DNA of 19,460 nucleotides from a virus (Duplodnaviria > Heunggongvirae > Uroviricota > Caudoviricetes): the IMG/VR virus record IMGVR_UViG_2693429706_000003; one strand, written 5' to 3'. Every line of letters starts with the position of its first letter. Position 1 is the first letter of the stretch. The translations under genes and the position numbers were made by a program. The notes under the pieces were generated by a model, which was not told where the DNA came from, searched no databases, and saw only the letters and a list, made by a program, of their open reading frames with translations. Shown piece after piece: positions 6,404 to 19,460 of this stretch.

Positions 6404-7078
6404 TTAGGCCTTTATTTTGTATCTTCTTGGTTTTCCTGAGAAAATCACTGTACCAATTATAGAGCAATTACCGTTGATCTTAATGTAAGGTTCAGGCCAG
6501 TTTGGGTTTAATGCTTTGAGGTAACGCTGTGTTCCATCTTCTATCAACCGCTTGAAGGTGGTTTCGCCTGTATCGTGCATCAATGCAATAACGTCGTCAC
6601 CGTGGCAGGCAGGGACTTCAGGATCAACAAAAATCATGTCTCCCGGGCGGTACTCATCAATCATTGAATCACCAATCACCCGCAAGATATAAGTCATTTC
6701 GCCACAGGGTACAGGGCAGGGATAAGTTTCTGCTGTGCTCAAATCAACCTCAGAATAGCCAACTTCTTTCCATGCTCCGGCCTGTACCCATGATATGACA
6801 GGGACTAACGTTATTTGTTTGTTAGTAATTGAAACATCAGGTTTTTTTGTGATGTTTGTTGTCTGGTGTTCTTGATCAAGCCATCCGACAGGCAGGTCGA
6901 AACATTTTTCGATGTGCCGTGCCATGCTGTCACCGATATTTTTAGTAGCACCATCTCCCATAAACCTGCTGGTCTGGGTTGGCTCGCGATCAATCATGGT
7001 GGCAAAGGAAGAATTCCCGCCAACACCATCTCTCAGTTTTCTGGCGTTAGACCGCCGGATGTCATGGACTGTTTTCAT
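6404..7078 (-). CDS. cI: CI-like prophage repressor (N-terminal HTH plus C-terminal S24 LexA-type peptidase domain)
   Basis: 224 aa. C-terminal 'VIGDSM' nucleophile-Ser motif and downstream Lys ('TTFKRL') typical of the LexA/CI autocleavage domain. Divergent from the cro-like gene, with operators between them. Confidence 0.85.
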   Translation of the reverse strand: MKTVHDIRRSNARKLRDGVGGNSSFATMIDREPTQTSRFMGDGATKNIGDSMARHIEKCFDLPVGWLDQEHQTTNITKKPDVSITNKQITLVPVISWVQAGAWKEVGYSEVDLSTAETYPCPVPCGEMTYILRVIGDSMIDEYRPGDMIFVDPEVPACHGDDVIALMHDTGETTFKRLIEDGTQRYLKALNPNWPEPYIKINGNCSIIGTVIFSGKPRRYKIKA

Positions 7079-7400: not shown

Positions 7401-7964
7401 ATGAGGCTAACCGTGGGTAAGCATCACTGGAAAGTAGAAAAACAGCCTGAGTGGTACGTGAAAGCTGTCAGAAAAACTATCGCGGCGTTGCCGGGAGGTT
7501 ACGCTGAAGCTGCTGAGTGGCTGGATGTAACAGAGAACGCTTTATTCAACCGCCTTCGTGCAGATGGCGATCAGATTTTCCCGCTGGGATGGGCAATGAT
7601 TTTACAGCGCGCGGCTGGCACTCACTACATTGCGGATGCTGTCGCACAGTCTGCTGGTGGGGTGTTTGTATCGCTTCCTGAACTTGAGGAAGTAGAGAAC
7701 GCCGATATAAACCAGCGCCTGCTGGAAGTCATCGAACAGATCGGGAGTTACTCAAAGCAGATTCGTTCGGCAATCGAAGATGGGGTAGTGGAGCCACACG
7801 AGCAGACAGCAATTAATGATGAGTTGTATCTGTCAATTTCGAAGCTCCAGGAGCATGCAGCACTGGTCTACAAAATCTTTTGCGCTCCAGAAAAGAGTGA
7901 CGCCCGCGAGTGTGCAGCTCCGGGCGTCGTGGCGTTTTGTGTCTGTGGAGAAACTAACGCATGA
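7401..7964 (+). CDS. CII-like phage regulatory protein (YdaT/CP76 family, tentative)
   Basis: 187-aa ORF directly after cro. Family call rests on position and overall resemblance only. An alternative GTG start at 7413 has an AGG 6 nt upstream. Confidence 0.45.
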   Translation: MRLTVGKHHWKVEKQPEWYVKAVRKTIAALPGGYAEAAEWLDVTENALFNRLRADGDQIFPLGWAMILQRAAGTHYIADAVAQSAGGVFVSLPELEEVENADINQRLLEVIEQIGSYSKQIRSAIEDGVVEPHEQTAINDELYLSISKLQEHAALVYKIFCAPEKSDARECAAPGVVAFCVCGETNA

Positions 7965-9109
7965 ACAGTTTAACGGCAAATAACCGTTTGTCGCAACAGC
8001 TGGTGGTCAGCGTCGCTGAACACCTGTTGTTACGGCATGAATGCAGATTACCAAATCACCTGGCTGTAAGTAACCACAGAGAACTTTACCTGACTGTGGG
8101 GGGCGAGTTGTGCAGGAACTTAACCGCTGGTTTCGTGACGGAAGAGGGCTTTATGTCCATGTTATTCGTTGGGAGCCAGAAACACAGCGCGTTATCTATC
8201 TTCGCAAAGACTACCCGCATGAGTGCTTTAGTCCTTTGTGGAAATTCAGGCGTGATTTTGTTGAGTGTGAAGGACCACCAGCACATTGATTCTGCCATTC
8301 CGGGACGTTACACTGTTCAGGCACCTTATAAAGCGGGTGTCGGGATTGGCGTCCTGGAAATGTTATCGGCGATATATGACGCGCCAGCGTCTTTTTTATC
8401 GTCTGCGTCTGTGCACACCCAAATTATGGTGGGCTGGACGGGGGCACCGAAAGGTGCGCCGGTTTCCGATAACGCCGGTTACGCCAACCCCGTTCAGTTC
8501 ACCACCAGCGAAATTGGCGTTTCCGGTGGTGAAGGTAATTCACTGTTATCGGAGACTGCCATCATGGCTACGATCCCAACCCTCACTCAACCTGAAATTG
8601 CCATCGTTGATGGTCAGGCTGTTACTTCATCCCTGGCTGTTGCCAACTTCTTCTCCAAACGTCATGACGATGTACTGAAAAAGATCCGCACGCTTGAATG
8701 TTCCGCATCATTCACTGCCCGCAATTTTTCGGTGAGTGATTACACCGATTGCACAGGCCGCAAACTACCTTGCTATCAAATAACCCGCGACGGCTTTGCG
8801 TTTCTTGCTATGGGTTTCACGGGTAAACGTGCTGCCCAGTTCAAAGAGGCATACATCAATGCCTTTAACCAGATGGAGAAACAGCTTTCAAAGCCCGCTG
8901 TACCGAGCGACGTTGCACATAACGCCAGCGTTCTCTATTCCTACATTTCATCAATTCATCAGGTCTGGTTGCAGCAGCTTTATCCCATGCTGGAAAAAGC
9001 TGAATCACCTCTGGCTGTAAGTCTGTATGACCGAATTAACGATGCGGCATTTCTTGCCCGTCTTATTCATTCGTCGCTGAACTCTTCAGAGGTAAGGGGG
9101 CGCAAATGA
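7961..9109 (+). CDS. Rha-family phage regulatory protein with a ~200-aa unrecognised N-terminal region (may instead be two genes, with Rha starting at ATG 8564)
   Basis: Residues from 'MATIPTLTQPEIAIVDGQAVTSSLAVANFFSKRHDDVLKKI' match the Rha domain as recalled. ATG 7961 overlaps the upstream stop (ATGA). Third-position GC favours frame 2 over the alternative frame in 8101-8220. GGAG lies 9 nt before the internal ATG 8564. Confidence 0.5.
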   Translation: MNSLTANNRLSQQLVVSVAEHLLLRHECRLPNHLAVSNHRELYLTVGGELCRNLTAGFVTEEGFMSMLFVGSQKHSALSIFAKTTRMSALVLCGNSGVILLSVKDHQHIDSAIPGRYTVQAPYKAGVGIGVLEMLSAIYDAPASFLSSASVHTQIMVGWTGAPKGAPVSDNAGYANPVQFTTSEIGVSGGEGNSLLSETAIMATIPTLTQPEIAIVDGQAVTSSLAVANFFSKRHDDVLKKIRTLECSASFTARNFSVSDYTDCTGRKLPCYQITRDGFAFLAMGFTGKRAAQFKEAYINAFNQMEKQLSKPAVPSDVAHNASVLYSYISSIHQVWLQQLYPMLEKAESPLAVSLYDRINDAAFLARLIHSSLNSSEVRGRK

Positions 9110-9330
9110 TCCGGAATATTTTCAAACGATTTACCAATCAGACTTTCCGTTGTCCTCGCCCCGGTCAGTGGTACACCACGCCTGCAGGGCATGTTCTACG
9201 TGTTAGCCTGGTTGACCGTGAATGTCAGAAGGTGATTTGTGAACCGCTGGGCCGTAATTACCGCGTCAGTATGCCGCTTATAGCCTTTCGCTCCGGAAAA
9301 AACATGAAGCATCTCGGAGGTGCGGCATGA
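9106..9330 (+). CDS. small hypothetical protein
   Basis: 74-aa ORF with ATGA overlaps to both neighbours (9106 with the Rha stop, 9327 with the O-like start). Confidence 0.4.
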   Translation: MIRNIFKRFTNQTFRCPRPGQWYTTPAGHVLRVSLVDRECQKVICEPLGRNYRVSMPLIAFRSGKNMKHLGGAA

Positions 9331-10319
9331 GCCTGTTAATGACATCCCAGCCCATTGTGATAAATCGTGATCTTGCATGCCGTATTGGTCTGAATGAGGC
9401 AATTGTGTTGCAGCAGCTTCATTACTGGCTGAATGAAACGAATTCAGGCACTGAGCATGGCGGAATTCGCTGGGTTTATAACACGACAGAACAGTGGCTG
9501 GAGCAGTTTCCGTTCTGGTCAGAGTCCACTCTGAAACGCACATTTGCAAGCCTGAAATCACTTGGGGTTTTGCGTCGCGAGCAACTCAATAAATCGAAGC
9601 GTGACATGACCAACTTCTACACGATCAACTATGAAAGTGAGCTTTTAGAAGAGGTCAAAGTGAACGAATCCATCAGGTCAAAATGCACTTCTCCATCGGG
9701 TCAAAGTGACCTGATGGATGGGCGCAAAATGACACGATCCATTGGTTCAAAACGACACGCTGTCATCGGGTCAAAATGGCCCAATGATCTTACAGAGAAT
9801 ACAACAGAGATTACTACAGAGAATAAAACCTCTTCTCGTCCGGACGCTTCGCAACCGGACACGCAAACGGCTGAACAGGAGTTTTTAACTCGCCATCCTG
9901 ATGCGGTTGTATTCAGCCCTAAAAAGCGCCAGTGGGGAACGCAGGATGATTTGACCTGCGCACAGTGGCTCTGGAAAAAAATCATCGCCCTGTACGAGCA
10001 GGCCGCCGAATGTGACGGCGAGGTGGTTCGTCCCAAAGAACCGAACTGGACAGCCTGGGCAAACGAAATTCGCCTGATGTGTGTGCAGGATGGTCGTACT
10101 CACAAACAAATCTGCGAGATGTACAGCCGCGTCAGCCGCGATCCGTTCTGGTGCCGTAACGTGCTCAGCCCGTCGAAGCTGCGGGAAAAATGGGATGAGC
10201 TTTCCCTGCGCTTATCGCCGTCCGTCAGCACATACACAGAAAAACGCGAAGACCCATATTTCAAATCCAGTTACGACAACGTGGACTACAGCCAGATCCC
10301 GGCAGGATTCAGGGGGTGA
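9327..10319 (+). CDS. phage replication initiator (lambda O-like N-terminal domain, possible DnaT-like C-terminal region)
   Basis: 330 aa with GGAGG SD 6 nt upstream. N-terminal 'RIGLNEAIVLQQLHYWL' resembles the Phage_rep_O winged helix. Iteron-like repeats sit inside the gene, as with ori in lambda O. Confidence 0.65.
   Translation: MSLLMTSQPIVINRDLACRIGLNEAIVLQQLHYWLNETNSGTEHGGIRWVYNTTEQWLEQFPFWSESTLKRTFASLKSLGVLRREQLNKSKRDMTNFYTINYESELLEEVKVNESIRSKCTSPSGQSDLMDGRKMTRSIGSKRHAVIGSKWPNDLTENTTEITTENKTSSRPDASQPDTQTAEQEFLTRHPDAVVFSPKKRQWGTQDDLTCAQWLWKKIIALYEQAAECDGEVVRPKEPNWTAWANEIRLMCVQDGRTHKQICEMYSRVSRDPFWCRNVLSPSKLREKWDELSLRLSPSVSTYTEKREDPYFKSSYDNVDYSQIPAGFRG
9671..9779. repeat. four ~15-bp direct repeats inside the O-like gene, candidate replication-origin iterons
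   Basis: CATCAGGTCAAAATG (9671), CATCGGGTCAAAGTG (9694), CATTGGTTCAAAACG (9740), CATCGGGTCAAAATG (9765). Confidence 0.6.
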
Positions 10320-10321
10320 GC

Positions 10322-10810
10322 ATGAGTATTTTGAATGAAGTTCAGAAATTCATTGAAGCCCATCCGGGCTGTACTTCCGGAGACATTGCGGATGCTTTTG
10401 CAGGTTACTCACGGCAGCGCGTTCTGCAGTCAGCAAGCAAGTTACGTCAGAGTGGGCGTGTGGCTCACCGTTGTGAAGGAGATACACGCAGACATTTCTC
10501 GCGCCTGACTGAGAGAGCGCAGGAGCCGGAACCACAACCAGTTCGTGAAACCAGACCTGTGCGCAAGTTCTATGTCGGCACTAACGACCCCCGGGTGATT
10601 TTGTGCCTGACCCGCCAGGCTGAAGAACTGGAGTCGAGGGGCTTATACCGTCGTGCTGCAACGGTGTGGATGGCGGCATTCCGTGAAAGCCACTCCCAGC
10701 CAGAACGAAACAATTTTCTGGCGCGTCGTGAACGGTGTTTACGGAAAAGCAGTAAGCGGGCTGCATCAGGTGAAGAGTGGTATCTCTCAGGGAATTACGT
10801 GGGGGCTTAA
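10322..10810 (+). CDS. PerC-family transcriptional regulator-like protein
   Basis: 'AEELESRGLYRRAATVWMAAF' matches the PerC/Pch core as recalled. AGGGGG SD precedes ATG 10322; a GTG at 10316 is the ORF-track alternative. Confidence 0.5.
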   Translation: MSILNEVQKFIEAHPGCTSGDIADAFAGYSRQRVLQSASKLRQSGRVAHRCEGDTRRHFSRLTERAQEPEPQPVRETRPVRKFYVGTNDPRVILCLTRQAEELESRGLYRRAATVWMAAFRESHSQPERNNFLARRERCLRKSSKRAASGEEWYLSGNYVGA

Positions 10811-11463
10811 TGAGTAATAAATATTGCCAGGCGCTGGCGGAACTGCGGAACAAACCAGCCCATGAACTGAAGGAAGTGGGCGATCAGTGGCGCACGCCGG
10901 ACAACATTTTCTGGGGAATTAACACCCTGTTTGGCCCGTTTGTTCTGGATCTGTTCACTGACGGTGATAACGCCAAATGTGCTGCGTATTACACGGCGGA
11001 AGACAACGCGCTGGCGCATGACTGGTCAGAACGCCTTGCGGAGCTTAAAGGTGCTGCCTTTGGTAATCCCCCATACAGCCGCGCCAGTCAGCATGAGGGG
11101 CAATACATCACCGGCATGCGTTACATCATGAAGCATGCCAGTGCCATGCGTGATAAAGGCGGGCGCTATGTTTTCCTGATCAAAGCTGCCACCAGCGAAG
11201 TGTGGTGGCCGGAAGATGCAGATCATATTGCTTTTATTCGCGGGCGTATTGGTTTTGAACTGCCTGCCTGGTTTATCCCGAAGGATGAGAAGCAGGTGCC
11301 GACAGGCGCTTTCTTCGCTGGTGCTATTGCTGTTTTCGACAAGACCTGGAAGGGACCGGCAATCAGCTACATCGGGCGCGATGAACTTGAGGCATGTGGT
11401 GAGGCCTTTCTGGCGCAGGTTCGCCAGCAGGCAGAAAAACTGGTCAGGGAGATGGCGGCATGA
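10810..11463 (+). CDS. phage Dam-like N6-adenine DNA methyltransferase
   Basis: 'FGNPPYS' catalytic motif. ATG 10810 overlaps the upstream stop (TAATG); the stop overlaps the next start. Confidence 0.7.
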   Translation: MSNKYCQALAELRNKPAHELKEVGDQWRTPDNIFWGINTLFGPFVLDLFTDGDNAKCAAYYTAEDNALAHDWSERLAELKGAAFGNPPYSRASQHEGQYITGMRYIMKHASAMRDKGGRYVFLIKAATSEVWWPEDADHIAFIRGRIGFELPAWFIPKDEKQVPTGAFFAGAIAVFDKTWKGPAISYIGRDELEACGEAFLAQVRQQAEKLVREMAA

Positions 11464-11786
11464 CGACGTTAACTCAATGCCAGCAGCAGGTGCTGGATAT
11501 GCTGATTTCTTATCAGAAAGAACGTGGCTTCCCGCCAACCAATCAGGAGGTGGCAACCATGCTGGGATACCGTTCAGTGAATGCAGCGGTGGAGCATCTT
11601 CGCGCACTGGAGAAAAAAGGCGTCATCACGATAAAGCGTGGCGTGGCCCGGGGCATCACGCTTCATACCGCGGTGAAGGACGACGACAGCGAGGCGGTCG
11701 GTATCATCCGCGCACTGCTTGCCGGTGAGGAGAACGCCAGGTTGCGTGCAGCCCACTGGTTACATGAGAGGGGCCTGAAAGTATGA
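11460..11786 (+). CDS. LexA N-terminal DNA-binding-domain protein lacking the S24 peptidase domain
   Basis: 108 aa. 'LTQCQQQVLDMLISYQKERGFPPTNQEVATMLGYRSVNAAVEHLRALEKKGVI' parallels the LexA winged HTH. No GDSM/Lys peptidase motifs. Confidence 0.7.
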   Translation: MTTLTQCQQQVLDMLISYQKERGFPPTNQEVATMLGYRSVNAAVEHLRALEKKGVITIKRGVARGITLHTAVKDDDSEAVGIIRALLAGEENARLRAAHWLHERGLKV

Positions 11787-12172
11787 AGCTAATACTGCCT
11801 TTTCCGCCCAGCGTGAACACGTACTGGCGACACCCCAACAAAGTGGCGTTTGCAGGTAAGAGCCTGATAAGCGCGGCGGGGCGCAAATTCCAGAGCGCGG
11901 CGTGTGCAGCAATAGTTGAGCAGTTACGTCGTCTGCCGAAACCAACGTCGGCACCTGCTTCAGTGGAGATCGTGTTGTTTCCTCCGGATAACAGGATCCG
12001 CGATCTGGACAACTATAACAAGGCGCTGTTTGACGCCCTGACCCACGCGGGGGTGTGGGAAGACGACAGTCAGGTGAAAAGAATGCTGGTGGAGTGGGGA
12101 CCGGTTATCCCGGAAGGGAAGGTCGAGATCACTATCAGTAAGTACGAGAAAACGGCGGGTGCAGCTGCCTGA
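11783..12172 (+). CDS. rusA: RusA Holliday-junction resolvase
   Basis: 129 aa with the RusA N-terminal motif 'LPFPPSVNTYW' and acidic 'DLDNYNKALFDAL' segment. Confidence 0.85.
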   Translation: MKLILPFPPSVNTYWRHPNKVAFAGKSLISAAGRKFQSAACAAIVEQLRRLPKPTSAPASVEIVLFPPDNRIRDLDNYNKALFDALTHAGVWEDDSQVKRMLVEWGPVIPEGKVEITISKYEKTAGAAA

Positions 12173-12191
12173 TTAAGAGGAGAAACGAAGT

Positions 12192-13001
12192 ATGAATAAT
12201 CTGATGGTCATTGATGGTATTGAAGTTCGTCGTGATGCTTATGGGCGTTACAGCCTGAACGATCTGCATCGCGCAGCAGTAGCATCTGGTGCAAATGCCA
12301 GAACCAAGGAGCCAGGAAAGTTTCTTTCCAGCCAACAAACTGTTGAGCTTGTTCATGAATTAACCAACACCCAGAATTTGGGTGTTGACCCGGTGAGTGT
12401 GATTCATGGGGGAAATGAACGGGGAACGTATGTCTGTAAGGAACTGGTGTATGCCTATGCAATGTGGATCAGCCCGTCATTCCATCTGAAGGTGATCCGT
12501 ACTTTCGATATGGTAACCAGCGCGCCGGAAAAGTTATCCGGACAGGCTGCTGACAAGATGCAGGCTGGCGTGATCCTGCTGGACTTTATGCGCCGGGAGT
12601 TAAATCTGTCTAACTCTTCAGTGCTTGGTGCCTGTCAGAAACTCCAGGAGGCTGTTGGCTTACCGAATCTGGCACCGCGCTATGCCATTGATGCACCTGC
12701 TGACGCGCCTGATGGCTCAAGCCGCCCGACGCTGTCGCTGAGTGCACTGCTGAAGCAGTATGGTATCCGCCTGACGGCTAATCAGGCATATCACCAGATG
12801 GTGAAGCTGGGGATCGTCGAGCAGCGCGAACGATACAGCCGTACCGGGATTAACAACATCAAAAAATTCTGGTCGCTGACGGCGAAAGGCTGCATGTTCG
12901 GCAAGAACATCACCAGTCCCGCAAATCCGCGTGAGACGCAGCCGCATTTCTTCGAATCCCGATTCCCTGAGCTGTTAAAGCTGCTCGATACCGTTCATTG
13001 A
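12192..13001 (+). CDS. KilA-N domain protein (antirepressor-like)
   Basis: N-terminal 'YSLNDLHRA...GTYVCKELVYAYAMWISPSFHLKVIRTFD' fits KilA-N as recalled. Confidence 0.65.
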   Translation: MNNLMVIDGIEVRRDAYGRYSLNDLHRAAVASGANARTKEPGKFLSSQQTVELVHELTNTQNLGVDPVSVIHGGNERGTYVCKELVYAYAMWISPSFHLKVIRTFDMVTSAPEKLSGQAADKMQAGVILLDFMRRELNLSNSSVLGACQKLQEAVGLPNLAPRYAIDAPADAPDGSSRPTLSLSALLKQYGIRLTANQAYHQMVKLGIVEQRERYSRTGINNIKKFWSLTAKGCMFGKNITSPANPRETQPHFFESRFPELLKLLDTVH

Positions 13002-13002
13002 G

Positions 13003-13998
13003 GTGACCGTGAGAGCACTACTGACCCCTGAAATTGCCCCGCGTATGGGGATCGTATTGTTCAGGCCAGGTTCAGAGCTGATGCCCCTGTTTATGCAGGG
13101 GCGTGTCCTGCTGGAGCCTGAGCCGGAACGTTATTCATCTTTCGCCAGTGGTGCCGTTCCGGCGGTATCACAACCGCTGGCGGATGATCCTGCCGTTCGG
13201 GCCGTGTTCCGCAATGAGGCAGTGATCCGTCGTGCTGGTGGCGTGGAATGTCTTGAAAGCTGGTTACTTCGTGAAAAAGGCTGCCAGTGGCCTCATTCCG
13301 ACTGGCACAGCGAGAACATGACCACAATGCGACACGCTCCGGGCGCAATCCGTCTGTGCTGGCACTGCGATAACCAGCTGCGCGATCAGTTCACGGAACG
13401 GCTGGAATCAATGGCAACGGATAACTGTGCCCGCTGGGTGTTGTCTGTAGTCCGTCGGGATCTCGGTTTTGATGATAACCATGCCGTGACAATGCCGGAA
13501 CTGTGCTGGTGGCTGATTCGTAATGACCTGGCGGATGCCTTACCTGAAAGCGCAGCCCGTAAGGCGCTGAGATTACCGAAACCTGTTGTGCCGTCTGTCA
13601 CCCGGGAGAGTGACCTTGTGCCTTCGGTTCCTGCCACCAGCATCATCCAGGATAAAGCGAAAAAGGTGCTGGCGCTGAAAGTGGATCCGGAGTCGCCGGA
13701 GTCTTTTATGTTACGCCCAAAACGCCGCCGCTGGGTTAATGAAAAGTACACGCGCTGGGTTAAGACACAGCCGTGTGCATGTTGTGGAAAGCCTGCTGAT
13801 GATCCCCACCACCTGATAGGCCACGGTCAGGGTGGAATGGGTACAAAAGCGCATGACCTCTTTGTGTTGCCTTTGTGCAGAAAGCATCACGACGAGCTGC
13901 ATGCGGATACCGTGGCATTTGAAGAGAAGTATGGCTCCCAGCTGGAGCTGATATTTCGTTTTATCGATCGTGCGCTGGCAATAGGCGTGCTGGCCTGA
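13003..13998 (+). CDS. DUF968-like protein with C-terminal Cys/His (HNH-like) motif
   Basis: 331-aa ORF. C-terminal 'CACCGKPADDPHHLIGHG...LPLCRKHHDELH' is a Cys/His cluster of HNH type. GTG start overlaps the KilA-N stop. Confidence 0.5.
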   Translation: MTVRALLTPEIAPRMGIVLFRPGSELMPLFMQGRVLLEPEPERYSSFASGAVPAVSQPLADDPAVRAVFRNEAVIRRAGGVECLESWLLREKGCQWPHSDWHSENMTTMRHAPGAIRLCWHCDNQLRDQFTERLESMATDNCARWVLSVVRRDLGFDDNHAVTMPELCWWLIRNDLADALPESAARKALRLPKPVVPSVTRESDLVPSVPATSIIQDKAKKVLALKVDPESPESFMLRPKRRRWVNEKYTRWVKTQPCACCGKPADDPHHLIGHGQGGMGTKAHDLFVLPLCRKHHDELHADTVAFEEKYGSQLELIFRFIDRALAIGVLA

Positions 13999-14015
13999 TT
14001 TTGTGGAGAAAGTTG

Positions 14016-14387
14016 ATGCGTGATATTCAAATGGTTCTTGAACGTTGGGGGGCATGGGTGGCAAATAATCACGAGGATGTGGAATGGTCATCTGTTGCTG
14101 CAGGTTTTAAGGGATTAATTCCTTCGAAAGTAAAATCCCGCCCGCAATGTAGCGATGACGATGGCCTGATCATTAGCTCTGCAATGACAGTTCTTAAGAA
14201 AAAGGAACCGTATCAATACGAATTACTGGAAATGTATTATGTGTATGGGGTTACATTACGGGCGTTGGGGGTAAAACTGGGGATATCACTTAATCAGGTT
14301 GTTATCAGACTGCAGAAAGCTGAAGGGTTTATTGACGGTTGTCTGGCAATGTTGGGGGTATCTTTAGAAATTGATTGTTACATATAG
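14016..14387 (+). CDS. antitermination protein Q (QuuD/phage-21-type)
   Basis: Start at ATG 14016 with GGAGAA SD. 'MRDIQMVLERWGAWVANNHEDVEWSSVAAGFKGLIPSKVKSRPQC' closely matches my memory of DLP12 QuuD. Last gene of the early-right operon. Confidence 0.75.
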   Translation: MRDIQMVLERWGAWVANNHEDVEWSSVAAGFKGLIPSKVKSRPQCSDDDGLIISSAMTVLKKKEPYQYELLEMYYVYGVTLRALGVKLGISLNQVVIRLQKAEGFIDGCLAMLGVSLEIDCYI

Positions 14388-14425
14388 TAATAAATTCAAT
14401 CAAAGTAAATAATCATATTTTATTA

Positions 14426-14460
14426 TAACCTCCTGATGATACCTGTTCATCGGGAGGTTA
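14426..14460 (+). promoter_or_regulatory. 14-bp stem-loop that sequesters the SD of the downstream AT-rich ORF
   Basis: TAACCTCCTGATGA (14426-14439) pairs with TCATCGGGAGGTTA (14447-14460): 13 Watson-Crick pairs plus one G-U, 7-nt loop. The right arm contains GGGAGG, 5 nt before ATG 14463. Confidence 0.45.
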
Positions 14461-14462
14461 TT

Positions 14463-15080
14463 ATGGATAAAAATGTAGAGCATGTATTAGTTGATGCAAT
14501 TGAAAATAAGCAATCTTTAACAGTCGTTTACTTAGGAGGGAGCCAGCCCGGAACATTAAGGAATATTTCTCCGATTAGTATAAATGGGGATAAATTGCGG
14601 GCAAGATGCCATAGTTCTGGAGCAGTAAAGGTTTTCAATCTTGGGAAAATACAGTTACCCAGTGACTCCTGCGCGGTATCTATGCACTATGGAGATTTAG
14701 AAGTTAAAGCTTATGAGACGATGCAGAGCGTAAATGACAACTTTCATGCCCTTTATCCTGAAGGACGATGGGGTGTTGATTTTAATGAGCATCGCTTTGC
14801 TTTATTTGATTTTTTTAAAAACGGGAAACGAAAAAAAACGGCATTTATGGCAATTGAGTTCAGGGAAAGAGATGAAGAGAAAATAATAACAGGTGTAACA
14901 ATTGATATTGGTATATCTGGAACAGTGATTTCTGAGAAGTCCCGAATCCCAAAAAGACGACCATGGGTAGTGGTTGGTCCCGAACACGGAGAATACAGTA
15001 CTTATTCAACTTTGGACAAGGCTGCTACAGCGTTTTTTGAGAGGCTTTCGTTGATAGCATCCGGCCTGGAAGATAATTGA
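14463..15080 (+). CDS. AT-rich hypothetical cargo protein with a possible N-terminal WYL-like domain
   Basis: 205 aa from ATG 14463. Markedly lower GC than its neighbours. 'LTVVYLGGSQPGTLRNISPISINGDKLRARCHSSGAVKVFNLGKIQL' fits the WYL-type pattern (Y...R.I.P...L.A.C...+.F.L.+I) by eye. Confidence 0.5.
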   Translation: MDKNVEHVLVDAIENKQSLTVVYLGGSQPGTLRNISPISINGDKLRARCHSSGAVKVFNLGKIQLPSDSCAVSMHYGDLEVKAYETMQSVNDNFHALYPEGRWGVDFNEHRFALFDFFKNGKRKKTAFMAIEFRERDEEKIITGVTIDIGISGTVISEKSRIPKRRPWVVVGPEHGEYSTYSTLDKAATAFFERLSLIASGLEDN

Positions 15081-15208
15081 TTTTATGTTTGGTATTCAGA
15101 GTTCGCCGTGCTTAAGAAAGTCAAGATTCTAAAAATACTGAATGAGCTACTTGTGTTATAACAAAAATGCTATTAGTGTGTTAAGAGTGGTTACTTCGCC
15201 ACACAACT

Positions 15209-15236
15209 TAAACCCGCCACTGAGCGGGTTTTTTGT
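15209..15236 (+). terminator. rho-independent terminator (possibly tR'-like)
   Basis: AACCCGC (15211-15217) / GCGGGTT (15224-15230) stem with CACTGA loop, then a T6 run. Confidence 0.7.
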
Positions 15237-15356
15237 ACCTGTAAACTTGGTGCAGTACAGTAAACACGCTGGTGGTCGTGAATACTGACTTTTTATCTTG
15301 CTGGATTTTTAGACAAGAGTTATTGGTATGTCATGTTAACCAGAAGGGAAAAAGAC

Positions 15357-15560
15357 ATGCTAAAACAGCAAGATATGACAGAAACCGCCGCCGCAGTCCT
15401 TCATTTCTTACCTGCTGACAAGTGGGTAACGCCACGCATGATGACGAGAACTACCGGAGTAAGCGAAGCCCGGTGCCAGTTAATACTGACTCAGTTAGTT
15501 CTGGCGGGTCTGGCGAAGGATAACGGCGGGTACGGGAATAAATTCAGACGCTGCCAGTAA
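15357..15560 (+). CDS. small hypothetical protein, possibly winged-helix DNA-binding
   Basis: Start chosen at ATG 15357 (AAGGGA SD 7 nt upstream), 67 aa. 'VTPRMMTRTTGVSEARCQLILTQLVLAGL' looks HTH-like. Confidence 0.4.
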   Translation: MLKQQDMTETAAAVLHFLPADKWVTPRMMTRTTGVSEARCQLILTQLVLAGLAKDNGGYGNKFRRCQ

Positions 15561-15710: not shown

Positions 15711-16763
15711 ATGAAAAATACTGTAAAAATAAACAGTGCTGATTTAATCAACGCTGATTGCCTGCATTTTATTCAGTCCCTGCCTGATGATTCCATTGAC
15801 CTGATTGTTACCGATCCGCCGTACTTCAAGGTGAAACCCAACGGCTGGGACAATCAGTGGAAAGGGGACGAAGATTACCTTAAGTGGCTGGACCACTGTC
15901 TGGCCCAGTTCTGGCGGGTGTTAAAACCTGCCGGAAGCCTTTACCTGTTCTGTGGGCATCGCCTGGCATCTGATATTGAGATCATGATGCGTGAACGTTT
16001 CAACGTGCTTAACCATATCATCTGGGCGAAGCCGTCCGGACGTTGGAATGGGTGTAATAAAGAAAGTCTGCGCGCATATTTTCCTGCCACAGAGCGCGTT
16101 CTGTTTGCTGAACATTACCAGGGGCCATATCGCGGCAAAAGTGACGGCTATGCGGCAAAAGAAAGGGAACTCAAACAGCACATAATGGCACCGCTGATAT
16201 CGTATTTCAGGGATGCTCGTGCCGAACTGGGTATAACGGCAAAACAAATTGCCGAAGCCACAGGTAAGAAAAATATGGTTTCCCACTGGTTTGGTGCCAG
16301 TCAGTGGCAGTTGCCGAATGAGGCTGACTATCGGAAGTTACAGGCACTGTTTTCCCGTATAGCGGCAGAGAAGTTTCAGGAACAACAACTGGAACAACCA
16401 CACCACCAGCTGGTGGCATCTTATGATTCACTGAATCGCAAATATTCTGAATTGCTGGATGAGTTTAAATCTCTCCGGCGCTATTTCTCCGTATCAGTCT
16501 CCGTGCCTTATACCGATGTCTGGATGCATAAACCCGTTCAGTTCTACCCGGGTAAACATCCGTGTGAGAAACCGGCGGATATGCTCAGGCAAATAATCAA
16601 TGCCAGTAGTCGACCTGGTGATCTGGTTGCTGATTTTTTTATGGGATCCGGTTCCACAATAAAAGCAGCAATGGCGCTGGGGCGTCGGGCCTTAGGTGTT
16701 GAGCTTGAGTCAGAGCGGTTTAACCAGACAGTGAAAGAGATAAACGAGCTGGTGGGGAAATAA
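15711..16763 (+). CDS. orphan beta-class amino DNA methyltransferase (N6_N4_Mtase family, probably N6-adenine)
   Basis: 350 aa. 'DLIVTDPPYF' (motif IV) near the N-terminus and 'DFFMGSGSTIKAAMALGRRALGVE' (motif I, AdoMet binding) near the C-terminus give the beta-class order. No restriction endonuclease gene adjacent. Confidence 0.8.
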   Translation: MKNTVKINSADLINADCLHFIQSLPDDSIDLIVTDPPYFKVKPNGWDNQWKGDEDYLKWLDHCLAQFWRVLKPAGSLYLFCGHRLASDIEIMMRERFNVLNHIIWAKPSGRWNGCNKESLRAYFPATERVLFAEHYQGPYRGKSDGYAAKERELKQHIMAPLISYFRDARAELGITAKQIAEATGKKNMVSHWFGASQWQLPNEADYRKLQALFSRIAAEKFQEQQLEQPHHQLVASYDSLNRKYSELLDEFKSLRRYFSVSVSVPYTDVWMHKPVQFYPGKHPCEKPADMLRQIINASSRPGDLVADFFMGSGSTIKAAMALGRRALGVELESERFNQTVKEINELVGK

Positions 16764-16878: not shown

Positions 16879-16888
16879 NNNNNNNNNN
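16879..16888. other. assembly gap (10 N)
   Basis: Literal run of n characters. Contiguity between the prophage and copA cannot be assumed. Confidence 0.99.
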
Positions 16889-16955: not shown

Positions 16956-19460
16956 TTATTCCTTCGGTTTAAACCGCAGCAACCGGTTGGCGTTACTCAC
17001 TACGGTAATCGACGAGAGCGCCATTGCCGCTCCGGCAACTACCGGGTTAAGCAGTGTTCCAGTGAACGGCCACAAAATACCGGCGGCGACCGGAATACCG
17101 ATACTGTTGTAGATAAACGCACCGAGCAGGTTCTGCTTCATGTTGTGCAGCGTTGCGCGGGAAATAGCGAGCGCATCCGCAACGCCCATCAGGCTATGGC
17201 GCATCAGGGTAATCGCCGCGGTTTCAATGGCAACATCACTGCCGCCACCCATCGCAATGCCGACATCCGCCTGAGCCAGCGCTGGCGCGTCGTTAATGCC
17301 GTCGCCCACCATTGCCACCTGACGTCCTTCACTTTGCAGATGTTTGATCGCTTCGGCTTTACCGTCCGGCAGCACCCCGGCGATCACCTCATCAATCCCT
17401 GCTTCTTTGGCGATCGCATTGGCGGTGGTTGGGTTATCCCCGGTCAACATCACCAGACGATATCCCGCTTTATGCAGGCGTTGCAGCGCCGCCACGCTAT
17501 CACTACGCAATGGATCGCGTACAGCCAGCAGGGCTACTGCTTTCCCGTCAATCGCCAGCAGCACAGGCGTTGCTCCTTGCGATGCCTGAGCTGAAATATC
17601 GGCTTCAATCGCTTTAGTATCGACTTGCTGATCATTTAACAACGCCTGATTGCCCAGCAATAACGCATGACCTTCAGCTTCACCGCTCACGCCCAGCCCG
17701 CGCAATGTGCGGAAACCGTTGACCTGCGGTAGCTGCATATCGCCTGCTTTATCGAGGATCGCTCGTGCCAGCGGATGGCTGGAACCTTGTTCCAGTGCCG
17801 CCGCCAGACGCAATGCCTGCGCTTCATCAACATCAGCAAATGTTTTCACTGCGACAACCTGCGGCTTCCCTTCGGTCAGCGTCCCGGTTTTATCGAACAC
17901 GACGGTATCGAGTGTACTGGCGCGTTGCAGCGCGTCGGCGTCCCGCACCAGCACGCCAAACTCAGCCGCCCGCCCGACGCCGGAAATAATCGACATCGGC
18001 GTCGCCAGCCCCAGCGCACACGGACAGGCGATAATCAGTACCGTGGTGGCAATCACCAGGGTATAAACAATTTGCGGTGCCGGACCAAAGAAGTACCAGA
18101 TTGCCGCACTGACCAGCGCAATCACCACCACCACAGGTACAAATACGGCTGAGATTTTATCCGCCAGCTGACCGATTTCTGGCTTGCTGCTCTGGGCCTG
18201 GCGCACCATGCGAATGATCCGTGACAGCGTGGTATGGCTGCCAACCGCACTGGCACGAAACAGCACACTGCCGTCCTGTACCACTGTCCCGGCATGGACG
18301 CTTTCGCCTTCGCCTTTTTGCTGTGGGATTGGTTCGCCCGTCAGCATCGCTTCATCCAGCCATGCTTCGCCCTGGGTAATCTCGCCATCTACCGGCACGC
18401 GATCGCCGGTCGTCAGGCGCAGTAACATCCCTGGCTGAACTTCCGCCAGCGGCACGCTTTTTTCACCCTCTGCGGTGACCACTCGCGCCGTCGGTGGGGT
18501 TAAATCGAGTAATTTCTCCAGCGCCTTAGAAGAACGCTGACGTGCGCGCGCTTCCAGCATATGGCCGAGATTAATCAGACCGATAATCATCGCACTGGCT
18601 TCATAGTAAAGATGCCGCGCTTCCATCGGGAACCACTGCGGCCACAGGTTGACGCTCATCGAATAGAGCCACGCCACACCCGTTCCCAGCGCCACCAGCG
18701 TATCCATCGTCGCTGCACCGTTCAGCAGGCTTTTCCATGCACTGCGGTAAAAATGGCCGCCGGCGAAAACCATCACTGCCAGGGTTATCAGGCCGATAAC
18801 TAACCACAAGCTGCGGTTGTCAGCGGTGACCATCATGTTATCGCCGATCATCCCCCAGACCATTACCGGGATACCCACAGCCAGTGCAACAATTGCCTGC
18901 CAGCGGAAGCGCTTCATCGTAGCTACGGCGGTTTCTTGCTGGCGCTCGCGGCGTTTAGCGTCATCTTCAATCGCTTCCGCACCGTAGCCCGCTTTTTCCA
19001 CCGCCTGCACTAAATCTTGTGGGGAGGCACTGCCCATCACCAGCGCAGTACGCTCCGCCAGGTTTACCCGTGCCTGAGTGACGCCCGGTACGCTTTGCAG
19101 CGCATTTTGTACGCGGGTGACACAGCTGGCGCAGCTCATGCCGCTCAGCAGCAACTGCTGGCTGTCATCGTCATCGGCGGTCGCTGCCGGAAGCGCCTCA
19201 GAAACCGCTGTCAGTGCTTCCGACGGGATTGATGACTCCGCCAGCGGTTTAGCCTTTGGGTGGCTTACAGATGCGTCATAACCCGCTTGTTTGATGGTTT
19301 CGATCAGCTGTTCTGCACTGGCAGTCCCGGTAACGTGCGCTTCAGTGATAGACACATCCGCCTGCTCAACATCCGGGCGCTGTTCAAGACTTTCTTTCAC
19401 GCGTTTAACGCAGTGACCGCAGGACAGGCCGTCCAGGGTCAGGTCGATAGTTTGTGACAT
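16956..19460 (-). CDS. copA: copper-exporting P1B-type ATPase CopA
   Basis: 834 aa, full length. Two N-terminal CxxC metal-binding domains (GLSCGHC, GMSCASC), CPC membrane motif, DKTGT phosphorylation site, GDGINDAP hinge. Sequence matches E. coli CopA as recalled. Confidence 0.95.
19254..19260 (-). promoter_or_regulatory. copA: copA programmed -1 ribosomal frameshift slippery heptamer (C CCA AAG)
   Basis: Minus-strand CAC CCA AAG GCT at codons His67-Pro68-Lys69. A -1 slip reads CCC AAA GGC TAA, ending a 70-aa product, the size reported for CopA(Z). Confidence 0.6.

Follow-up and report, generated by a model that had tools for sequence, protein, structure and literature searches.

A stand-alone WYL-domain gene behind a predicted Shine-Dalgarno-masking hairpin, between Q and the inferred late promoter of an Escherichia coli lambdoid prophage

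What is encoded by the single AT-rich gene that lies between the antiterminator gene Q and the lysis genes of a lambdoid prophage, and why is its ribosome-binding site (RBS) buried in a stable RNA hairpin? This question was raised by IMG/VR virus record IMGVR_UViG_2693429706_000003 (Caudoviricetes), whose analysed stretch of 19,460 nucleotides (nt) is referred to in full as the window. The window was identified as an Escherichia coli lambdoid prophage, and its segment 14380–15240, which contains the gene, occurs at 99.9–100% identity in 51 of 5426 complete E. coli genomes. The gene product was found to belong to a large family of stand-alone WYL-domain proteins having no helix-turn-helix (HTH). 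The reading that we prefer, at a probability of roughly one half, is that it is a stand-alone accessory factor which binds single-stranded DNA (ssDNA), is expressed in the lysogen, and acts in phage–host or phage–phage conflict.

A two-domain WYL protein and its family

The gene and the two domains predicted for its product are located as follows.

14463..15080, plus strand: 205-aa open reading frame (ORF), HTH-less WYL-domain protein, RefSeq WP_000360285.1 (translation; full-length match to phrog_8498, E 3e-126)
14463..14654, plus strand: WYL domain, residues 1–64, one helix followed by a five-stranded Sm/SH3-like barrel (predicted fold and family Pfam matches)
14721..15059, plus strand: α-β5-α domain, residues 87–199, with a variable low-confidence loop at 134–167 (predicted model)

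The gene is real and under purifying selection, as its ratio of nonsynonymous to synonymous substitution rates (dN/dS) is 0.23 at a dS of 0.82 against a relative of 71% identity (the P0002 type). The matched PHROGs entry is listed as function unknown. Another in-frame ATG at 14436, inside the left arm of the hairpin described below, would add nine residues to give a 214-aa ORF; this start was rejected and the one at 14463 adopted, because in the P0002-type relative the ATG at 14436 does not share the reading frame. With a profile of five sequences, an exhaustive HMMER search yielded 954 clusters at 50% identity with E ≤ 1e-3, including 191 with E ≤ 1e-30, so that the sporadic, degenerate homologues feared in an earlier note on this DNA were not what these ~950 clusters represent. 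Nearly all members are 185–210 aa long, match end to end and always stand alone; the longer ones carried only a zinc ribbon or unrecognised extensions as fusion partners. Among 50,697 sequenced phage genomes, a homologue was found in two. A few truncated or split copies of 115–144 aa exist in E. coli prophages (P0003–P0006; L022, 6001–6369; L071), and the gene thus decays in some lineages.

The N-terminal ~60 residues had been assigned by eye to the WYL type in the earlier note, and the assignment held for residues 1–64 at the level of the predicted fold and of the family Pfam matches, with the structure comparison proposed there also carried out. The window protein itself matched PF13280 at 16.5 bits (E 0.0085), which is below the gathering threshold of 21.8 bits. 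Matches at E ≤ 0.01 were obtained for 36 of 100 family members, the best being 4.8e-8, and one member (P0180) exceeded the threshold with 29.7 bits, its alignment to the family profile extending over 168 columns and both domains. When the family profile was compared with solved structures, DriD, BrxR, CapW, and PafC were found, which share the motif Y-x-GGS-x-PG-x-x-R-x-I-x-P; the profile segment ..YhGGSqpGavReIaP.. was aligned with YEGGSTPGRTREVTP of DriD (residues 172–205, E 8e-5). An AlphaFold (AF2) model constructed from a 100-sequence alignment showed a mean predicted local distance difference test score (pLDDT) of 85.8, with 94–98 in the barrel, and the five-stranded Sm/SH3-like β-barrel characteristic of WYL domains was present in this predicted model. 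Foldseek superposed CapW on it at 1.4 Å over 69 columns and BrxR at 1.1 Å over 65, and a search of the BFVD viral folds gave nothing at E < 1e-3.

The motif of the domain is Y23-x-G25-G26-S27-x-P29-G30-x-x-R33, together with K56, F58, and K62. Y23, G26, R33, and K56 were invariant in the 100-sequence alignment, all four lying inside the WYL domain, and G25, S27, P29, G30, P37, A47, F58, K62, G102, W103, K119, G121, P167, A187, and F191 were near-invariant. The basic and aromatic residues of the ligand pocket are kept as in DriD and CapW, whose WYL domains bind ssDNA (PMC12041258, PMC11662680); it is in this pocket that the family is most strongly conserved. The W-Y-L triad is not kept; its strand reads D-K-L-R-A-R-C (residues 43–49; family consensus K-V-R-A-R-C) in a register set by eye. 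Pfam and NCBIfam scans of the window protein gave no match to any HTH family, and the barrel begins at approximately residue 18 after a single helix in the AF2 model, indicating that the protein does not have the architecture of the regulators composed of a winged HTH (wHTH), a WYL domain, and a WCX domain.

A disordered linker joins the WYL barrel to the C-terminal domain, in which the positions GW102–103, FKNGK 118–122, RPW166–168, A187, and F191 are conserved; within FKNGK, K119 and G121 are the near-invariant residues and K122 does not vary in the five-sequence alignment A3. In the 100-sequence alignment this domain conserves neither acidic nor histidine residues, which points to binding or oligomerisation rather than to catalysis. 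Its ~115 residues exceed the ~82 of the DriD WCX domain, to which similarity could not be shown, and they match no recognised family, consistent with the earlier note, where this part was described as unrecognised.

The genomic positions of the homologues bear on function. Some take the position of rexAB, directly after a CI-like gene, co-directional with it and divergent from cro (L073, L074, L077/78). Others face a CI or LexA-family repressor in convergent orientation (L085/86, and Pseudoalteromonas phage PY3, where the gene is placed between integrase and repressor) or are located beside Rha (L019–21, L075). Homologues were also observed in defence islands, namely together with FRG, GmrSD, HEPN, and NERD genes, with an SMC-like ATPase and an Mrr-nSTAND3 protein, or with an OLD-family nuclease and an HD protein, and further ones occupy other variable islands. 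No neighbour gene was conserved across ~15 distinct contexts. The recurrence beside CI and in defence islands suggests expression in the lysogen and a role in conflict, and from this genomic context the defence or fitness role put forward in the earlier note is plausible. The CI-like repressors directly upstream of the WYL homologue (L077, 5570–5986, and its equivalents in L073 and L074) are 138–152 aa long and give a weak match to the Phage_CI_repr HTH; they seem to be short repressors that lack a self-cleavage domain, leaving the mode of induction of these prophages to be explained.

The hairpin over the Shine-Dalgarno sequence

The start of the gene is preceded by three overlapping elements.

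14425..14461, plus strand: stem-loop sequestering the Shine-Dalgarno (SD) sequence, with left arm 14425–14439, loop 14440–14446, and right arm 14447–14461
14452..14457, plus strand: SD sequence GGGAGG, 5 nt before the ATG at 14463 (read from the sequence)
14421..14426, plus strand: −10-like hexamer TATTAT of a hypothetical promoter, from which transcription would start at ~14433, inside the left arm

The stem-loop (ATAACCTCCTGATGA / TACCTGT / TCATCGGGAGGTTAT) contains 15 bp, composed of 14 Watson–Crick pairs and one G·U pair, and a 7-nt loop. The pairing of CCUCC with the GGGAGG SD reported in the earlier note was hence found, in a stem one pair longer than the 14 bp counted there, and the proposed sequestration was reproduced in computed folds, where the SD is fully paired in every transcript containing both arms. 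The computed free energy of the hairpin is −25.5 kcal/mol at 30 °C, −22.8 kcal/mol at 37 °C, and −20.7 kcal/mol at 42 °C, and the minimum free energy structure is the same up to 90 °C. This does not agree with the thermosensor that had been suggested; since the stem is predicted to stay folded up to 90 °C and does not melt between ~30 and 42 °C, an RNA thermometer was ruled out on computed stability. The z-score of the hairpin is −5.4 over 76 nt and −3.9 over 101 nt, none of 200 shuffled sequences folding equally well. Opening of the RBS costs 18–22 kcal/mol when both arms are present and 3–5 kcal/mol when the 5′ end lies at 14433–14436.

In the 71%-identical relative, 31 of the 37 nt of the hairpin are identical, and synonymous sites differ there at 50%. 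The left arm differs from the P0002 type at 2 of 15 positions, which against that synonymous divergence indicates that it is constrained. In the P0002 type the stem is retained, with replacements to U-G and U-A and a single mismatched pair. Stem variation across 53 IMG/VR loci is one-sided throughout: the majority type has G·U in place of G-C, and in three loci a C·A mismatch in the stem weakens the SD as well. For covariation there are just two diverged sequence types, and the changes seen are one-sided (C-G to U-G, U-G to U-A, G-C to G·U), with one mismatch besides. The hairpin is present in the relatives located after Q and absent from homologues in other genomic contexts, and therefore belongs to the after-Q setting. 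No Rfam family reached its gathering score for the leader or the hairpin. In one locus (L040, IMGVR_UViG_2563366940_000006, upstream of 4001), the left arm is swapped for an unrelated sequence, presumably derived from a transposon, with the junction inside the loop, thus providing a natural allele with an unmasked SD.

The −10-like hexamer is TATAAT in 12 IMG/VR loci and TACAGT in the P0002 type, in the same register and with TGAACA 16 nt upstream; its T1, A2, and T6 are kept in all three sequence types. A transcript beginning at 14436 would give the 214-aa version of the ORF a leaderless start. On the minus strand, a σ70-like site (14449..14422, TGAACA-16-TATAAT, 10 of 12 matches) is located inside the hairpin and directed into the 3′ end of Q. 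With a position weight matrix (PWM) score of 8.5 it exceeds the 95th percentile for random windows of 141 nt, and it is weaker in the P0002-type relative; the site could drive an anti-Q transcript resembling lambda PaQ.

Features of a terminator were also noted for the hairpin. Its GC-rich stem is followed by UUAUUAU, the first four bases of which can pair with AUAA at the base of the stem, and a consensus terminator scan made no call. Stem-loops or terminators are located directly 3′ of Q in every cargo-bearing relative examined; those of PhiR40_1 and RM10386 are clear plus-strand terminators, and phiP27 has a 14-bp stem ahead of its plus-strand cargo.

A low-GC cassette between Q and its late-control elements

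The surroundings of the gene on the Q side and on the lysis side consist of the following features.

14016..14387, plus strand: Q antiterminator gene, 123 aa from the RefSeq ATG, Q21/Q933 family (PF06530, E 5.2e-48; RefSeq coordinates from S88 and E47)
14388..14424, plus strand: AT-rich spacer, left edge of the cargo cassette, 27% GC, poorly conserved
15081..15150, plus strand: cargo-specific AT-rich 3′ flank, right edge of the cassette, 34% GC
15151..15205, plus strand: inferred Q-dependent late promoter PR′ and conserved initial transcribed leader (collinearity with PA28, PhiR40_1, and mEp460_4F5/RM10386)
15151–15186, layout of PR′: −35 TTGTGT at 15151–15156, a 17-nt spacer with CAAAAAT, −10 TAGTGT at 15174–15179, and +1 at ~15186
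15182–15205, plus strand: leader TAAGAGTGGTTACTTCGCCACACA, part of the conserved PR′ block
15210..15234, plus strand: intrinsic terminator tR′, AAACCCGC-CACUGA-GCGGGUUU followed by U's (GC-rich stem and T6, computed fold)

The GC content is 39.6% for the WYL ORF, 26.7% for the spacer between Q and the ORF, and 34.3% for the 3′ flank, versus 52.7% for the early-right genes (7401–14000), in accordance with the low GC pointed out in the earlier note. Its placement of AT-rich cargo in the Q-to-holin interval was likewise borne out, with Q (PF06530) upstream and the holin and lysozyme genes downstream in complete genomes. The spacer shows an 11-nt indel and many substitutions against the P0002-type relative, and homology to cargo-free phages starts at ~15151–15162. 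These boundaries show a low-GC accessory cassette of ~760 bp (14388–15150), which carries one gene and is inserted between Q and the late-control cassette that belongs to Q. In PA28 a gap of 16 nt lies between Q and PR′, which are split here by the 760-bp cassette (27–40% versus 53% GC), as expected for a moron. As for a promoter and terminator of its own, the −10-like hexamer has a weak −35 with a PWM score within background, and the first downstream terminator is the common tR′.

In lambdoid phages, a promoter, a σ-dependent pause site, and a terminator lie directly downstream of Q as the PR′/qut/tR′ cassette. The window Q matches the Q21 structures 6P18 and 6JNX (E 2.6e-10) and shares 57–59% identity with Q of Shiga toxin (Stx) phages, being 57% for the 933W-like Stx2 phage PA28. 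In PA28 the block TTTACG-16-TATCAT-ga-TAAGAGTGGTTACATTGCCACGCA starts 16 nt past the Q stop codon, and in the collinear comparison it reads TTTACG-16-TATCAT-ga-TAAGAGTGGTTACATTGCCACGCAGTCGAACCCGCCGATGCGCGGGTTTTTTT; its counterpart in the window, TTGTGT-17-TAGTGT-gt-TAAGAGTGGTTACTTCGCCACACAACTTAAACCCGCCACTGAGCGGGTTTTTT (15151–15234), is located downstream of the WYL ORF. PhiR40_1 and mEp460_4F5/RM10386, which have a related Q, possess the same PR′-leader-tR′ block placed after their own cargo, and SfV and Ayreon, which have a different Q of 250 aa, share the sequence only from the terminator onward. The position of PR′ is set by homology alone; the site is the top plus-strand PWM match within 15120–15215, and directly after Q (14360–14430) neither a credible σ70 site nor similarity to the PA28 promoter block was found. 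From these collinear blocks and the general layout downstream of lambdoid Q genes, we infer that 15151–15205 is PR′ with its leader and that 15210–15234 is tR′. A small conserved leader stem, GUGGU...GCCAC (15187–15202), lies inside the TAAGAGTGGTTAC(T/A)T(C/T)GCCAC block of all phages with this Q family, and may contribute to the signal for pausing or Q loading used by Q933-type antiterminators.

The terminator ascribed in the earlier note to the gene exists, though not as the gene's own. The tR′ segment occurs at 89–97% identity in ~850 E. coli genomes without the WYL ORF, the homologous site is annotated as a terminator by the depositors of phages SfV and Ayreon, and a consensus scan of the window made no call at 15210–15234. 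As tR′ and the ~60 nt before it are common to those genomes and to cargo-free phages, a private terminator for the WYL gene was ruled out; the terminator and the preceding ~60 nt belong to the conserved PR′-leader-tR′ cassette. The analogy drawn there with Shiga toxin also fails with respect to control. The WYL gene lies between Q and PR′, and is therefore not covered by the late transcript that Q antiterminates; stx, in contrast, is located past tR′, within that transcript, and is Q-dependent.

The Q-to-PR′ interval is a cargo hotspot, because unrelated cargo occupies the same slot in sister phages (L002, L005–L007, L009, L010).

PhiR40_1: 148-aa gene, minus strand
RM10386/mEp460_4F5/cdtI: two genes of 182 and 308 aa, minus strand
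phiP27: 409-aa gene with a 14-bp stem ahead, plus strand
ev243: OmpC-like porin gene

A homologue of 71–73% identity with the same Q, hairpin, and gene layout was found in a Stx-converting prophage (L068/L069, 6642–7882), in which the gene after the methyltransferase encodes an A subunit of the RIP family (319 aa), with that of an SLT_beta B subunit (89 aa) next to it.

Two genes follow tR′ in the window.

15357..15560, plus strand: first gene after tR′, small 67-aa protein with a possible winged-helix motif (phrog_331, E 3e-26; weak MarR/TrmB matches; RefSeq coding sequence in E47)
15711..16763, plus strand: N6-adenine DNA methyltransferase, with the holin gene next in complete genomes (PF01555, E 2e-42; PADLOC MTase_II, E 2e-152)

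The gene order in a complete genome (E47) is Q, WYL ORF, 67-aa gene, DNA methyltransferase, holin, lysozyme, and structural genes. In the window, a run of 10 N at 16879–16888 separates the methyltransferase gene (end 16763) from copA on the minus strand (16956–19460). Since holin and lysis genes come after the methyltransferase in complete genomes, the apparent end of the prophage at copA probably reflects a scaffold join or masked sequence rather than biology. A match to the enterobacterial small RNA STnc130 was detected on the minus strand at 15202–15338, below threshold (31.6 bits versus a gathering score of 55, E 0.024), overlapping tR′ as well as the sequence ahead of the 67-aa gene.

Proposed function and comparison with known systems

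The reading of the gene as a lysogen-expressed conflict factor can be put together as follows. The WYL pocket is predicted from its motif and modelled fold to bind single-stranded nucleic acid, as in DriD, CapW, and BrxR. Having no DNA-binding output, the protein may act by sequestering its ligand or through protein–protein contacts of its C-terminal domain. It would be made in the lysogen and act either by exclusion or defence, or by tuning the ssDNA or DNA-damage signal. The hairpin would serve as an insulator, not a sensor, that uncouples the gene from strong early PR-to-Q read-through. Because any Q-derived transcript contains both arms, such read-through would be partly terminated at the stem and its UUAUUAU and also translationally masked, at an opening cost of ~20 kcal/mol. 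Transcripts started at ~14433 from the hexamer at 14421–14426 would lack most of the left arm, so that the SD would be open (~3–5 kcal/mol) and translated. A more far-reaching proposal, which we regard as speculative and rather unlikely in its full form, is that the HTH-less WYL family, with its ~1000 clusters, is a stand-alone ssDNA-signal module of temperate phages in lysogeny slots (rex-like after cI, and Q–PR′) that excludes competing phages or, as a decoy, captures the signal of the host regulators CapW, BrxR, or DriD, with translation gated by transcript identity, i.e., the hairpin silences early read-through and only in-stem starts are translated.

Several points weigh against the conflict-factor reading. 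The W-Y-L triad is replaced by K/L-R-A, and ssDNA binding is deduced from motif and fold only. No significant match to any defence-system model was found in PADLOC-DB v2, which gave two weak matches, both to CRISPR-associated WYL models (E 0.0014 and 0.0066). A literature search retrieved neither a paper mentioning the protein nor an experiment on any family member. Homologues occur twice among housekeeping genes (L013, L014), and carriage of the gene is limited to the 51 of 5426 complete E. coli genomes. The stem shows no doubly compensatory change between just two diverged sequence types, with one pair broken in the relative, and the −35 of the proposed internal promoter is poor in the window, its PWM score falling within the background range. 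The gene is moreover on the same strand as Q, 75 nt downstream and with no canonical terminator between, and could thus be the last delayed-early gene, with low expression in lytic growth.

This last point leads to a possible but doubtful alternative, in which the delayed-early PR operon ends with this gene and its product, made on induction, is a counter-defence decoy: the HTH-less WYL protein would soak up the ssDNA signal of CapW, BrxR, and DriD-like regulators (CBASS, BREX, etc.), the hairpin keeping its dose low. The position of the gene on the Q strand is consistent with it, as is an ssDNA-sensor-type pocket motif kept without an output domain. CapW-dependent CBASS activation was reported to limit lambda prophage induction (PMC11662680), and a phage would gain by blunting it. 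However, homologues in chromosomal defence islands and in the rexAB-like position by CI fit lysogen expression better, an RBS opening cost of ~20 kcal/mol would nearly abolish translation from read-through transcripts, and a homologue is found in only 2 of the 50,697 sequenced phage genomes. A lysis–lysogeny modulator was also considered, which would sense ssDNA as a sign of DNA damage and act on a repressor, an antirepressor, or RecA via the C-terminal domain, thereby tuning induction. We regard this as improbable, since the repressor of the window (6404–7078, 224 aa, annotated as XRE-family) lies 7 kb from the gene, the PsiB and frataxin matches are near noise level, and the members in defence islands have no repressor partner.

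The remaining alternatives concern the hairpin. It might mainly be an intrinsic terminator or a 3′-end stabiliser of the Q transcript, its overlap with the SD being incidental and the gene largely silent cargo. The stem-loops after Q in cargo-bearing relatives, with the plus-strand terminators of PhiR40_1 and RM10386, and a stem followed by UUAUUAU (5 U in 7) speak for this idea, but the U-tract is interrupted and the terminator scan made no call. The gene is also under purifying selection with SD and start codon kept, and a silent gene would decay, though a few truncated copies (P0003–P0006) exist; hence we consider it unlikely. Conditional opening of the SD by temperature or by a ligand, i.e., an RNA thermometer or riboswitch, would account for the fully paired SD. 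It is highly improbable in view of the predicted stability (−22.8 and −20.7 kcal/mol at 37 and 42 °C, respectively), the fold retained at 90 °C, and a plain helix with a 7-nt loop, no pocket, and no Rfam family at threshold.

The WYL assignment was already known from RefSeq names, as the protein is labelled "WYL domain-containing protein" in some genomes. What the present analysis adds is the recognition of a large two-domain family without an HTH, the occurrence of its members in lysogeny modules and defence islands, the cargo hotspot between Q and PR′, and the constrained RBS-masking hairpin. WYL domains have been known chiefly as ssDNA-sensing inputs to transcription factors switching on DNA-damage responses and immune operons. 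The present family uses a WYL sensor without a DNA-binding output and is widespread and stand-alone, both in lysogen-expressed phage slots and in bacterial defence-gene locations. If ssDNA binding is true, the protein would either be a new factor that provides exclusion or defence from a single gene, or act as a sponge for the signal of WYL-regulated immunity, and in both cases the ssDNA alarm pathway would gain a new logic. The locus also adds detail to the map of a phage lineage of medical relevance that includes Stx prophages: its Q–PR′ cargo hotspot is distinct from the Q-dependent stx slot, and a simple hairpin is proposed to separate the cargo there from early transcription.

When compared with the wHTH-WYL-WCX regulators (DriD, CapW, BrxR, PafBC), the window protein has neither the N-terminal winged HTH nor the three-helix bundle, and it therefore cannot be a DNA-bound regulator of that type. 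It further differs in that the W-Y-L triad is not kept and the C-terminal domain is longer (~115 versus ~82 aa for the DriD WCX). The locus resembles the lysogen-expressed exclusion genes of the lambda rexAB and sieB type and the morons of Hendrix in being a foreign-GC gene between elements that are adjacent in related phages. The likeness extends to distant homologues, which lie directly after cI like rexAB, and to a slot that is a hotspot of unrelated cargo in sister phages. As differences, the protein has no sequence or fold relation to the Rex and Sie proteins, and the gene has at most a putative promoter of its own and a borrowed terminator (tR′). It shares with the stxAB cargo of 933W-like phages the Q-to-holin interval and the phage lineage, a 71%-identical homologue being present in the Stx-converting prophage L068, whereas stx lies downstream of PR′-tR′ and is Q-dependent, and the WYL gene lies upstream of PR′, outside the Q-antiterminated transcript. 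The closest parallel to the hairpin is given by the phage T4 genes e (lysozyme) and soc, which are translated in a transcript-specific manner through an RBS-masking hairpin. As in e and soc, long read-through transcripts have their SD paired in a stable stem-loop, and a start within the stem would open the RBS (18–22 versus 3–5 kcal/mol, computed); in contrast to them, the internal promoter here is putative, being a weak match to the consensus.

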